In this document: piece after piece, positions 8,901 to 16,004 of the stretch
Layout: every line of letters begins with the position of its first letter
How positions within the stretch are numbered: position 1 is the stretch's first letter
Assembly: GCA_965216875.1 (NCBI GenBank)
Contig: OZ244207.1
Coordinates: 4,992,001-5,056,000 of the forward strand
DNA: 64,000 bases
Direction: 5' to 3'
Source of the DNA: Rubripirellula sp.
Lineage (GTDB): Bacteria > Planctomycetota > Planctomycetia > Pirellulales > Pirellulaceae
The notes under the pieces: model-generated
Told to the model about the DNA's origin: nothing
The model's input: only the letters and a program-made list of their open reading frames with translations
Database searches by the model: none
Made by a program: the position numbers and the translations under genes

Positions 8901-10766
8901 TCACTTGATCTCAACCGTCTGGCGAAGCTGAGCTGGGGGCAAACAAAAGGTGTCACGACACACTTCGTAGTCGACCAAGACACGCAACCTCGTTGTCGCG
9001 GCAACGTCATCAACCCGGACTTTCCGACTGAATTGCGCGATCGCTTGGTAGATCTTTTCTTGTGGATTTTGCCTCGAAGGCTGGCCCTTTGAACGGGTCC
9101 ACTTTCCCAGCGGTGCGACACCGCCTGGCAAGTCGAACTTCAGTCGCACTGGAACATGGGCGCCGCCTTCAGGAACTTCCGAGTAAAGGTGCCATCCCGG
9201 TTTGATGGAGATCGTCACCTTCACGTCGTAGACGCCCGGCTGATCCTCAACCGGATCGGCGACCGTCACCATGCTTAACTGGTCCGTCGAAACCTTGTCG
9301 TCAGTCTCGAAGGTGTCCACCTTTTCTTCAGGCTTGACGTCTTTCTCAGGCTTTGCGTCCGGTGATTCTGCCGCTGAGCCCGCGGACGAAACCGCGTGCT
9401 TGGGCGCATCTGGATTCCGTCGGAAGTACCAAACTTGACTGATACGAGATTCCTTTTCGATGAACTCTTTGTTCCGCTCGCTCAGCTTTTCGAACCTACC
9501 TTGAAATGGCTTCATCGCCTCTTCGAAGGCCTCTTGATCGTAGTCCCCGGCCTCAAACTTCTTGGCAAACTCTTTTTGTACCGCTTGGCTTTCCGCCGTC
9601 AGGGCTTCAATCGCCTGCCGCACTTCTTCCTGGGCGACTTTTTCTTCGTCGGTCATCTCGCGCAGGTGATAGACGTCTGAGTAGTCGCCAACGATCAAGT
9701 CGAGCCAACCATCGTTGTCATAGTCAACAACGCAGATCTGGCTTCGAACGCCCAGTGCCGCTTCGTCGTCCTTGCCAAGGTATTGCATCTTGAACTTTGA
9801 TTCCGAACCAGCTGCGATCAGTGGTCGGTACGCTTCGAACTTTGGCTCACCTGTTGAACCTTGCGTCACGTTGCGATACCAGCCAACTGCGCCGTCACCC
9901 GAACCGACGACCAAGTCCCATTTGCCGTCGTTGTCCCAATCAGCAGCAACGGGCGCAGCGTGCATGTTGACGTGCAAGGGTTCCTCACCAACGTTCACTT
10001 GGATCGCGTCGACCGAGTACTTCGGTGTTTCGCGCGTGCCGATGTTCGTGCGCAAAAACAAGTCGCCCGAGAACGAACCTATCAAAACGTCGAGATCGCC
10101 GTCGCCATCCCAATCGACGGTCGTCGGCCAGCTTCCAAAGGTCGCGACTCGCAACGTGATTGAATCGGTATCACCAGAGTTCTGCTTCTCTTCGTCAAGC
10201 TCATTCCACTTGGCAAGCTCGACCGGATGGTGGACCAGTTCGATTCCTGACTCGTCACGAATCTTTTCGACTTCGGCATACTTGCCATCACCCAAACCGC
10301 GAAACAGATAGATGTCGCCGGGGTCGTACGAACCGCTGATCATGTCGAGCGTGCCGTCGTTGTCGTAGTCCACAAACTGTGGACTTGACGCGATGCATCA
10401 GTAAACCGGTGTCTTGGCATCGACACCACCTGCTTGAAGTTTGCCTTTGGACGTGTACTCAGGCTTTTCGTCGTTGGCCGTGTTTTCGAAGAACCAAAAG
10501 AAGCCTGGAAAATCCCCCACCAACAGATCGCGGTCACCATCACCATCGACGTCCGCCACGCAGGGTCCAGCGTGAGCAATGTTTGACAATTGACCGATGT
10601 CGATCGGCTTGCCGTCCGCTTGGATGCGAACTCCTTTGTCTAGATCGCCGACCACTCGATCTTTCGTCAAGTCCTGCTCGCCGGCGATCGCCGTTGGAAG
10701 CGCCAGCAGCCCCATCAACAGCGTGCATGAACCACGCCCCACCTTCCTCAATAACCGACAACACAT
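8901..10766 (-). CDS. Candidate selenoprotein: secreted FG-GAP/VCBS-repeat protein with U123-C124 and a C-terminal DsbD-alpha-like domain (621 aa with TGA readthrough at 10398-10400)
   Basis: ORFs 10398..10766 and 8901..10373 are in one frame and join as KTPVY-TGA-CIASSPQFVDYDNDG; repeated DxDxDGxxDLxxG motifs lie on both sides; C-terminus has IKPGWHLYS and YEVCRDTFCLPP; SECIS-like hairpin follows the TGA. Confidence 0.75.
10362..10400 (-). promoter_or_regulatory. Bacterial SECIS-like element
   Basis: UGA, a 12-nt spacer, then AGUCCACA-GUU-UGUGGACU (perfect 8-bp stem, loop starting GU), extended by GUC/GAC. Confidence 0.7.
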
Positions 10767-14200: not shown

Positions 14201-14583
14201 GTTGTCTGTTCATCCCTCGATGCGAGATCGCGCATCAATCACACCACCTTTATACTCCGGCGAGAACGACGATGCGCTGTCACTACCTTCGGCCAGACAG
14301 CGGGGCCTCGCCCATGTCCCCAGCCGGTCAACGTCCCGACGGGGTCACCCGTCCCTGACTTTGAAATGCCGTCCGATGCCGCAAATCAGTGGCGGAAGGA
14401 CTGCCAAACAGGCGATTTGTCATTGAAGTGACGGCTGTCCCGTTCGGCCGCCGACCGCGGGTGAAGTGTAAGCTCGTCCACGTGATGAGGCTATTTCACC
14501 TACGCAATGGGTGGTCGCCGGGCTAACCTGTCACCAGTCAACGTTAGTTATCCTTCCTCTTAACACGCGAGGAGTTTCATTCA

Positions 14584-14946
14584 ATGAAACGATCGTCTTT
14601 ACTGCTGCCCATCGCGATGCTGGTCGCGATCGGCTGTTCGGCCGAACCTGAGGCAACGGTTGATTCCAATGCCACAGAGTCGACCCAAACCGTACAAACT
14701 CCAGCTGGAACCGATTCCGAGGCTGTCACCTTTGTCAGTCTCAAAGTTCCCAACATGGTCTGAGGAGGCTGTGCCGCTTCGGTCCGAAGCGATCTGTCCA
14801 AAATCGCAGGTGTCAGCGATATCAAAACCGACATCCCCAACAAGACCTGTTCGTTCAAGATCTCTGATCCTAACGTTGACTACGAGGCGGAACTGAAGAA
14901 GTACGCCGAAACGAACACGCACTTGGCTGAATACACCATTCAGTAG
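14584..14946 (+). CDS. Candidate selenoprotein: heavy-metal-associated (HMA/CopZ/MerP-like) lipoprotein with M-V-U-G-G-C (120 aa, TGA at 14761-14763); absent from the ORF track
   Basis: GAGGAG RBS; MKRSSLLLPIAMLVAIGC lipobox; VSLKVPNMV-U-GGCAASVRSDLSKIAGVSDI matches the HMA MxCxxC fold; frame stays open to TAG 14944-14946; terminator follows; SECIS-like hairpin present. Confidence 0.85.
14761..14791 (+). promoter_or_regulatory. Bacterial SECIS-like element
   Basis: UGA, an 11-nt spacer, then CGCUUCG-GUC-CGAAGCG; GGUC apex as in the E. coli fdhF SECIS. Confidence 0.75.
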
Positions 14947-14970
14947 TCCATCCAACCGAATTGCGAAGTG

Positions 14971-15008
14971 AAACGGGCCCGTGAAACTCTCACGGGCCCG
15001 TTTTTTAT
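14971..15008 (+). terminator. Intrinsic terminator after the HMA gene
   Basis: AAACGGGCCCGTGA-aactc-TCACGGGCCCGTTTTTT. Confidence 0.85.
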
Positions 15009-15136
15009 TGATCGAAAAGAAAACGGAGATTTCTTTCCCCGCGGTGTAATCCTGGAGGCCGTTGTGCCCTTTGTCTAATGTCAACACGAGACAAACGAAC
15101 AAAACACAAGGCAAACCAACTCAAGGAGCCAGGACA

Positions 15137-15559
15137 ATGAAAACCTCATGGAAGTCAATCGTAGCAGCAGGAACGGTCGTCGCCGCTTTGGGACTTTGCG
15201 TTCCGCAAACGGCAAGTGCACAGGGCACCGTGTACGTTTCGACCCCAACCGTCGTCAACGCAACTGTGGGCTACACCGTCGAACAACGCGGATTGCTCGG
15301 ACGACGAACGGTTGTCCGCCCCGTGGTCGCCCCAGTGGTGACAAACACCGTGGTCGCCCGACCTGTCATCACAACGCCTGTGGTGACAACCCCCGTGGTC
15401 CCAGCACCTGTCGTTCAAACCCGCGTGGTCACGCCAGTCGTCACTCCACCAGCACCTGTCACGGTGGCTCGCCCTGTTTACACCGCAGCCCCCACAACCG
15501 TCGTGCAACCCGTCGCTCCGGTGACCTACTACACGCCCCCTGTGCTGACGGCATGGTGA
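15137..15559 (+). CDS. Secreted Pro/Val/Thr-rich low-complexity protein
   Basis: AAGGAG RBS; signal peptide ending ASA-Q; VGYTVEQRGLLGRRTVVRPVV; paralogue at 20783-21220. Confidence 0.8.
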   Translation: MKTSWKSIVAAGTVVAALGLCVPQTASAQGTVYVSTPTVVNATVGYTVEQRGLLGRRTVVRPVVAPVVTNTVVARPVITTPVVTTPVVPAPVVQTRVVTPVVTPPAPVTVARPVYTAAPTTVVQPVAPVTYYTPPVLTAW

Positions 15560-15650: not shown

Positions 15651-16004
15651 TTAGCGAACGATGGTGCGACCAAACTTGGTGATCACGACTTCGACGCTGT
15701 GGTCGCAGCCTGGGAACTTGTAGGTCAGGACCTTGCGACCGAAGAAACCAGATCGGCATCCGCAGTACACAGGAGGAACTTCTGCACAGCAGGCTGGCAC
15801 GCATGCCGACACTTCATAGGTGCAGCATGGGTTGCATGGATCTGCAACGCACCATGAAACCTTCACCGGTGGTGGAGGGCATGGGGTGCAGCAAACAGGT
15901 GCTGGCTTGCAGCATGGATCAAGGCAACCAGCGTCGGCCGGCGCTGCCATTGCAACCAAAGCGGCTACCATGCACCCGGCGATCAAACCACGTAAACGAA
16001 ACAT
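15651..16004 (-). CDS. Small secreted Cys/Pro-rich protein (planctomycete-type)
   Basis: Signal peptide ending ADA-G; CC pairs; RSGFFGRKVLTY. Confidence 0.8.
   Translation of the reverse strand: MFRLRGLIAGCMVAALVAMAAPADAGCLDPCCKPAPVCCTPCPPPPVKVSWCVADPCNPCCTYEVSACVPACCAEVPPVYCGCRSGFFGRKVLTYKFPGCDHSVEVVITKFGRTIVR

Follow-up and report, generated by a model that had tools for sequence, protein, structure and literature searches.

The gene described here lies in a 64,000-nucleotide (nt) stretch of the genome of Rubripirellula sp. (GenBank assembly GCA_965216875.1, contig OZ244207.1, positions 4,992,001 to 5,056,000 of the forward strand), hereafter the window, whose own numbering is used throughout. 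It is found on the forward strand and almost certainly encodes a small selenocysteine (Sec)-containing lipoprotein with a single heavy-metal-associated (HMA) domain (Table 1). Its reading frame begins with the ATG at 14584, contains a single in-frame TGA at codon 60, and then stays open for 60 more sense codons up to a TAG at 14944-14946; under translation table 11 the frame ends after 59 residues. The N-terminus reads MKRSSLLLPIAMLVAIG-C18, in which Cys18 is, by the general lipobox consensus, the predicted lipidated first residue of the mature protein. The TGA occurs in the sequence VSLKVPNMV-TGA-GGCAASVRSDLSKIAGV and falls on the first Cys of the M-x-C-x-x-C metal-binding motif. GGAG-like motifs precede the start codon in most orthologs as well, and the terminator behind the gene has a folding energy of -28.3 kcal/mol (z = -5.65) that was matched by none of 200 shuffled sequences. 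A preliminary description of this locus, made from the DNA sequence, had listed a ribosome-binding site, a lipobox, a Thr/Ser/Glu linker, the TGA, 60 open codons to a TAG, and a terminator, and all of these are present where it placed them. That description had also called the gene unannotated, a statement that could be checked indirectly: a protein collection holds a 59-residue stub ending at the TGA, from a single contig, and a word-based protein search found no near-full-length relative. The result of the word-based search is uninformative on novelty, because Sec forms are truncated in the databases.

Table 1. Features of the predicted selenoprotein gene and its surroundings, in window coordinates.
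Feature	Position	Strand	Basis
Shine-Dalgarno-like GAGGAG, 9 nt upstream of the ATG	14569-14574	+	Direct sequence reading
Predicted selenoprotein coding sequence (CDS), 120 residues plus TAG, codon 60 TGA read as Sec	14584-14946	+	Translation, PF00403, orthologs, dN/dS
Predicted lipoprotein signal peptide, lipobox A-I-G-C	14584-14637	+	Sequence, alignment
Thr/Ser/Glu/Pro low-complexity linker, residues 19-48	14638-14727	+	Predicted disordered
HMA domain (ferredoxin-like beta-alpha-beta-beta-alpha-beta), residues 49-120	14728-14943	+	Structure model, Foldseek
UGA codon 60, predicted Sec, first ligand of the U-G-G-C metal loop	14761-14763	+	Aligns with Cys in homologs
Cys63 codon TGT, second loop ligand	14770-14772	+	Invariant in 23/23 aligned members
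Putative Sec insertion sequence (SECIS) core: 7-bp stem CGCUUCG/CGAAGCG, loop GUC, 11 nt after the UGA	14775-14791	+	Fold, covariation
Cys89 codon TGT, start of strand beta-3, candidate third ligand or resolving cysteine	14848-14850	+	Conservation
Intrinsic terminator: 15-bp GC-rich stem, 5-nt loop, T run	14970-15010 (stem 14970-15004)	+	Terminator scan

The readthrough product is recognizable as an HMA protein, as the preliminary description had proposed. With Sec read as Cys, it matches the Pfam HMA model PF00403 with 36.3 bits (cut-off 24.8, E = 7.5e-9, residues 53-99), and a six-frame translation reading through the stop gives 28.6 bits with the same model. An AlphaFold model built from 23 family sequences has a predicted local distance difference test (pLDDT) score of 94-98 over residues 50-120, with strands at 49-54, 77-83, and 88-93 and helices at 61-71 and 100-110. 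The best Foldseek matches of this model in the PDB are all HMA domains, the first being the oxidized form of MerP (1osd; E = 1e-4, TM score 0.77 normalized to the target, 26% identity). Residue 60 stands directly before the helix at 61-71, and the loop M-V-Sec60-G-G-Cys63 lies at the beta1-alpha1 junction. The first 48 residues are disordered in the model (pLDDT of 49-57 over residues 1-40), and the linker varies freely in length and sequence among the orthologs. In the signal peptide, G17 and C18 are invariant in all 23 aligned members, and both lspA (85.2 bits) and lgt (171.6 bits) are present in the genome. Ordinary signal peptides that have no lipobox were seen in one ortholog (L016) and one metagenome member (L166).

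The in-frame TGA is conserved well beyond this genome. A six-frame search of 61 related genomes returned matches in 30 of them; each of the eight best matches (E <= 2.6e-22) contains exactly one TGA, at the same codon, and the ninth-best (genome G006) carries Cys at the Sec position. Of 401 genomes sampled from the order and searched with a profile, 37 gave a match at E <= 1e-8, and among the 17 matches at E <= 4e-18 the codon is TGA in 16 and Cys in one (G395). The loci extracted for comparison comprise 23 Sec forms from 23 genomes, the window's own included, and two Cys forms. Besides this genome, 22 others of the order share the TGA at that codon; together they belong to several families, and in the alignment of 23 members the same column holds UGA in 21 and Cys in two. 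An independent metagenome contig of the same locus (run X5) has the identical frame with the TGA kept. In addition, a scan of metagenome contigs for the TGA-plus-hairpin pattern described below recovered 23 contigs, all of them full-length members and 22 with a lipobox by eye; these sequences were chosen for the TGA and the hairpin, and they show abundance and frame continuity and give no independent support for the hairpin. The sequence behind the TGA is itself conserved as protein: over the 57 codons 3' of it, the ratio of nonsynonymous to synonymous substitution (dN/dS) was 0.068-0.205 in 10 ortholog pairs, at a dS of ~1-1.9, which indicates that strong purifying selection acts on the frame past the "stop".

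Alternation of Sec and Cys at this position extends to a wider set of sequences. When 1.84 billion representative proteins were searched exhaustively with HMMER, 6757 matches were obtained at E <= 0.001; most of these are generic HMA domains, and among them are single-domain lipoproteins of 108-156 residues that have the C-terminal signature of the family and Cys at the Sec position. In a tree of 72 domain instances, calculated with the Sec/Cys column masked, the Sec and Cys forms interleave; the best tree has 13 Sec/Cys changes, and at least four are forced by its well-supported branches alone. The ratio of Sec to Cys forms in this set is meaningless, as the metagenome rows were picked for the TGA and Sec forms are underrepresented among the library rows. 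The nearest named Cys-form relatives, from Pirellulaceae and Anatilimnocola, come from a genome-contig search that was built on Cys, returned only Cys forms and generic HMA domains, and is used here for names only. The TGA/Cys alternation foreseen in the preliminary description is thus borne out by aligned members, library proteins, and the tree.

Other Sec motifs occur in a sister group of HMA lipoproteins from the same order. Its members include UxxC (L022, L030, L031), UxxxC (L020, L021, L024, L056), and two-Sec UxxxU forms (L018, L027, L035), as well as Cys forms (L017, L019, L026), and none of the seven members scanned reached an NCBIfam cut-off. In the double-Sec genes of this group, a single hairpin 3' of the second UGA may serve both codons. 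A library entry of the family under study, P0003, is a tandem of two domains, implying two Sec residues.

Directly downstream of the UGA, and within the CDS, lies a hairpin resembling a bacterial SECIS. The stem-loop CGCUUCG-GUC-CGAAGCG reported in the preliminary description is present after the 11-nt spacer it gave, with a folding energy of -9.7 kcal/mol and an apex that reads GGUC when the closing G is counted. It occurs in the same register in 22 of the 23 Sec forms; the exception, L016, has UCAGUGC-GGUCU-GCACUGA shifted by a few bases, again with GGUC at the apex. In an alignment of 23 sequences, 96.3% of the 161 cells of the 7-bp helix are paired, with both-sided changes at two of the seven pairs (9 cells), while slid registers pair in only 30-44% of cells. 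The covariation score of 0.237, compared with a shuffled mean of 0.097, was reached by none of 500 shuffles. Individual sequences illustrate how the stem has been maintained: each of the four with AGC (Ser for Gly) in the 3' arm has the synonymous codon GCU, not GCC, in the 5' arm, L010 replaces a G-C pair with A-U, and L051 keeps the stem by means of two double changes. The equivalent columns of the two Cys forms pair at zero and one of the seven positions, and the hairpin is absent from both.

The preliminary description had likened this hairpin to that of Escherichia coli fdhF in both spacing and apex. In the K-12 record, fdhF reads UGA, 11 nt, GGUUGCA-GGUC-UGCACC, and the two elements share their position directly downstream of the UGA within the CDS, the 11-nt spacer, and the GGUC apex. 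The likeness does not extend to the exact placement of the apex, as GGUC starts at +18 in the Rubripirellula gene, one base closer to the UGA than in fdhF, where it starts at +19. The stems differ as well, with a perfect 7 bp and a 3-nt loop (or 6 bp and a 5-nt loop) in the Rubripirellula gene, whereas the fdhF stem has a bulged U and a loop of 4-6 nt. In the fdhF element, the bulged U and the loop G and U have functional roles.

The genome, which is assembled as a single 8.26-Mb contig and is 99% complete, contains the Sec machinery that the preliminary description had made a test of its reading: selA (412.9 bits), a SelB winged-helix domain, and selD are clustered near 325-330 kb, and there is one tRNA-Sec with anticodon tca. 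None of the three outcomes that the preliminary description had named as refuting it (a readthrough product without an HMA match, lack of conservation behind the TGA, or a genome lacking recoding machinery) was obtained. The selD match, outside the window, lies within a 749-residue open frame (G000:C1:325282-326898) that also has a pyridine-nucleotide-disulfide oxidoreductase family match, obtained with the MerA model at 37 bits; judged from these matches, SelD seems to be fused to an oxidoreductase-like domain, adjoining selA and selB. SelA scores are bimodal across the related genomes. At least 321 bits were obtained in 21 of the 22 other Sec-form genomes and in neither of the two Cys-form genomes, which gave matches of only 113 and 188 bits; among 10 genomes of the same family that have no copy of this protein, one scored 468 bits, six scored 119-277 bits, and three gave no match. 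The 321-bit line was set after the gap had been seen, the weaker full-length matches may represent a paralogous family, and the genomes counted are related and do not form independent samples.

A third cysteine, Cys89, is found in 60 of the 72 domain instances. Four of the 12 instances without it have a Cys directly before the Sec/Cys position (C-U-x-x-C or C-C-x-x-C), and since all four belong to one clade they represent one event. Judged by the topology of the modeled fold, the metal loop and the first residues of strand beta-3 share one end of the sheet, and Cys89 could plausibly complete a three-ligand site or act as a resolving cysteine. Taken further, Sec60, Cys63, and Cys89 (in one clade, the Cys before Sec) might form a Se/S/S site that serves as a periplasmic trap or relay for substrates poorly handled by two-Cys HMA domains, such as trigonal Hg(II), methylmercury, As(III)/Sb(III), or selenium or sulfur species, although we consider this specialization fairly unlikely.

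A comparison of the family with known HMA proteins shows both likenesses and differences. Like MerP (TIGR02052; PDB 1osd and 1afi), the protein has a single exported HMA domain with its loop at beta1-alpha1, and all 23 members match TIGR02052 (best E = 2e-9), none of them at the cut-off. The Rubripirellula protein scores 27.7 bits against an equivalog cut-off of 92.55, and it differs from MerP in having Sec as the first ligand, a lipobox and linker as an anchor where MerP is soluble, the C-terminal signature A-x-T-N-x-H-L-x-x-Y-x-I-Q, and the extra Cys89; it also lacks a mer operon. With CopZ and Atx1 (NF033795, NF033794, and TIGR00003) it shares the HMA fold and a loop of the M-x-C-x-x-C type, and in both cases two chalcogen ligands probably hold a soft metal. 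CopZ, however, is cytosolic, has no signal peptide, and is found in an operon with CopA, in contrast to the present protein, which is predicted to be exported, lipid-anchored, and Sec-containing, and is encoded far from the CopA-type ATPase gene of its genome; the CopZ models gave 27 bits against a cut-off of 91.

HMA selenoproteins as a type have been predicted since 2008, and no new kind of system is proposed here. A "Mercuric transport protein MerP" selenoprotein (two sequences) and a UxxC "Cation-transporting ATPase E1-E2" appear in Table 2 of the Global Ocean Sampling (GOS) survey (PMC2398784), HMA-type selenoproteins are also tabulated in a 2026 review (PMC13188914), and NCBIfam holds NF041115, a UxxU "Metal-binding protein", and NF045683, a MerT/CopZ fusion selenoprotein. 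These listings agree with the remark in the preliminary description that UxxC HMA-like selenoproteins had already been predicted. The present family resembles them in having Sec in place of a metal-binding Cys and in being predicted from UGA/Cys alignment together with a SECIS. It differs from NF041115 in having one Sec (UxxC) where that family has the UxxU motif, and, unlike the ATPase and the MerT fusion, it is a stand-alone lipoprotein. Scores of 21.2 bits with NF041115 (cut-off 95; best E among the 23 members 1.2e-6) and 21.4 bits with NF045683 (cut-off 375; best E 1.4e-7) are well short of assignment, and no NCBIfam model reached its cut-off on any of the 23 members. It is conceivable that the two GOS "MerP" sequences belong to this same family, which is set apart from them here by their tabulated descriptions and not by the GOS sequences themselves. 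Full-text searches aimed at Sec-containing HMA lipoproteins and at Pirellula-type selenoproteins turned up no account of this family; the Planctomycetes selenoprotein table (PMC4807772, Table S9) lists no metal-binding protein, and the main texts of BSepDB and deep-Sep, whose supplements may hold members, do not mention HMA domains or metals. The family thus appears to be a new, unmodeled one within an already predicted type of selenoprotein, with a biochemical role that we infer.

Taken together, these data make it very probable that the locus holds an intact, monocistronic selenoprotein gene whose product would be an exported, lipid-anchored HMA domain that probably binds a soft metal. UGA60 would be decoded as Sec by SelB and Sec-tRNA(Sec), directed by the in-CDS hairpin 11 nt downstream, and the protein would then be exported, cleaved, and lipidated at Cys18, so that the HMA domain would be held on the periplasmic side of the membrane by a flexible linker of ~30 residues. 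There, on grounds of homology, Sec60 and Cys63 are the most likely ligands of a soft metal ion; their selenolate and thiolate, with Cys89 as a probable third, could accept Cu(I), Hg(II), Ag(I), or Cd(II), which would be buffered or handed on by analogy with MerP, CopZ, and Atx1. The use of Sec could be advantageous in this setting, as its lower pKa would keep the ligand reactive in the oxidizing periplasm and a Se-S bond could be reduced again more readily than a disulfide. A role as a metal buffer or chaperone is somewhat favored, with Cu(I) as a first guess at the ion.

A number of results weigh against parts of this interpretation. With regard to Sec insertion, one Sec-form genome (G079, 81% complete) yielded no SelA. 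The folding energy around the hairpin is no better than that of shuffled sequences (z = -0.59 for 66 nt and 0.02 for 40 nt), with z = -2.17 for the 29-nt core only, and the support for the hairpin is comparative, not thermodynamic. An Rfam scan of 14300-15200 at E <= 10 found no SECIS family, only chance matches near the terminator. In addition, an alternative 5-bp helix (UGAGG:CCUCG, 14761-14781), which starts at the UGA and the next two bases (UGAGG with CUUCG or CCUCG), competes with the 5' arm of the SECIS and excludes its hairpin. RNAfold often favors this helix, in several orthologs; it is pairable in 93% of cells, and its covariation was matched by 100 of 500 shuffles and so does not exceed them, for which reason it is not counted as a feature of the gene.

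With regard to function, there was no conserved neighbor within 1.5 kb on either side of 25 loci, and within 8 kb on either side of 17 loci no neighbor was shared by more than five. Sulfatases, DUF1501 proteins, DUF7133/cytochrome c proteins, and an MFS-acyltransferase-AMP-ligase fusion recur near the gene, and were considered as partners and set aside as common paralogous families. In the window, the gene is flanked by a leucine-rich-repeat protein, an unassigned secreted protein, an extracytoplasmic function (ECF)-type sigma factor, and others with no link to metals. MerT had no match in the genome, and the best MerA-family match, located elsewhere, scored 406.6 bits, below the cut-off of 454.45; a mercury role is therefore without support from context. 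The sole other HMA domain in the genome belongs to a CopA-type P1B ATPase at 7.58 Mb, 2.6 Mb from the present gene at 5.0 Mb, and the suggestion of copper draws only on analogy and on this single ATPase. We know of no experimental demonstration of selenium incorporation or metal binding for any HMA selenoprotein. As no neighbor is conserved and neither MerT nor an above-cut-off MerA was found, the proposed function rests on homology. The preliminary description had suggested a "metallochaperone or redox protein", and this stands as a proposal, with no conserved neighbor pointing to a metal.

The redox half of that suggestion corresponds to the most serious alternative, in which the gene and its Sec decoding are as described above and the UxxC motif forms a periplasmic thiol/selenol redox center instead of a metal carrier, the protein acting as a reductase, an isomerase, or a peroxide or chalcogen handler in which Cys89 would be the resolving cysteine. 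In the published tables (PMC2398784, PMC13188914), redox selenoproteins carry UxxC more often than any other motif, a third Cys as widespread as Cys89 is what would be expected of a resolving cysteine, the lack of a conserved metal-homeostasis neighbor is in line with it, and the nearest solved structure is the oxidized, disulfide form of MerP. However, the fold is that of an HMA domain and not thioredoxin-like, the families matched best (MerP, CopZ, and the UxxU metal-binding selenoprotein) all bind metals, and M-x-[C/U]-x-x-C at the beta1-alpha1 junction is the canonical metal site. It also counts against a redox center that, to our knowledge, no HMA domain acts as an oxidoreductase. We therefore regard the redox alternative as quite unlikely and metal binding as the better account of the motif.

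Far less probable is that UGA60 is read as a residue other than Sec, such as Trp, Cys, or Gly, whether a near-cognate or suppressor tRNA or a reassigned code were responsible. Three library entries, P0003 (in both domains), P0105, and P0141, do show Trp at the Sec position, as a call under code 4 (TGA = Trp) would give, and such calls are apparently their origin. Within the window, 24 stop-to-stop frames reach 400 codons or more, and 10 of them close with TGA; the same codon is the genuine stop of four orthologs (L042, L047, L048, and L052), which shows that the code is not reassigned. Furthermore, among the members examined the position aligns only with Cys and never with a sense-coded Trp or Gly, a covarying hairpin lies at SECIS distance, and the Sec-form genomes carry SelA. 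That the UGA simply terminates translation, leaving a pseudogene, a sequencing error, or a 59-residue lipopeptide with relic HMA similarity, can be dismissed with near certainty: automatic gene calling does give exactly this 59-residue product, but the same TGA recurs in 23 genomes of several families and in the independent metagenome contig, the frame behind it evolves under strong constraint at saturated dS and ends in a proper stop followed by a strong terminator, and the truncated product would keep only strand 1 of the HMA fold.

Some further observations concern the locus and its surroundings. Two minus-strand frames over the gene, of 171 and 93 codons, were considered as genes and rejected: their similarity between loci only mirrors the conserved plus-strand gene, the Pfam match belongs to the plus-strand frame, and the longer one crosses the terminator. 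A 382-nt contig from a run whose type is only guessed to be RNA (X6) covers 14569-14950, which coincides closely with the gene, and nothing is drawn from it. About 700 nt downstream of the gene, on the opposite strand, a 117-codon frame (15651-16004, minus strand) begins with what resembles a signal peptide and is very rich in Cys and Pro over the rest of its length, where CC and PC pairs are numerous; it has no Pfam match. The window also contains a second likely selenoprotein gene (8904-10766, minus strand), with a TGA at 10398-10400 in the motif P-V-Y-U-C and an 8-bp hairpin, GUCCACAG-UUU-GUGGAC, ~13 nt 3' of the TGA. Its predicted product is an exported protein of 621 residues with FG-GAP repeats and a C-terminal DsbD_N domain, and both homologs found in 30 relatives at E <= 1e-40 likewise contain one TGA; "FG-GAP repeat" selenoprotein candidates have been listed for Planctomycetes (PMC4807772, Table S9).

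In conclusion, the gene at this locus is a genuine selenoprotein gene, and its family can be described as a lipobox-anchored, MerP-like HMA domain with a predicted Sec60-x-x-Cys63 motif that gene callers have mis-called. Gene callers systematically split the members of this conserved family or miss them altogether, and since no NCBIfam model recognizes its members at the cut-off, pipelines relying on such models will keep missing it. The repeated alternation of Sec and Cys in one small, easily expressed domain amounts to a clean natural experiment on Sec versus Cys as a metal ligand. If the fairly unlikely specialization as a three-ligand trap or relay were real, bacteria of the Pirellulales type would have radiated a set of UxxC, UxxxC, UxxxU, and CUxxC lipoproteins as an outermost layer of trace-element handling, hidden until now by annotation. 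More generally, the family suggests that Planctomycetota-like bacteria handle metals in the periplasm in a selenium-dependent way.

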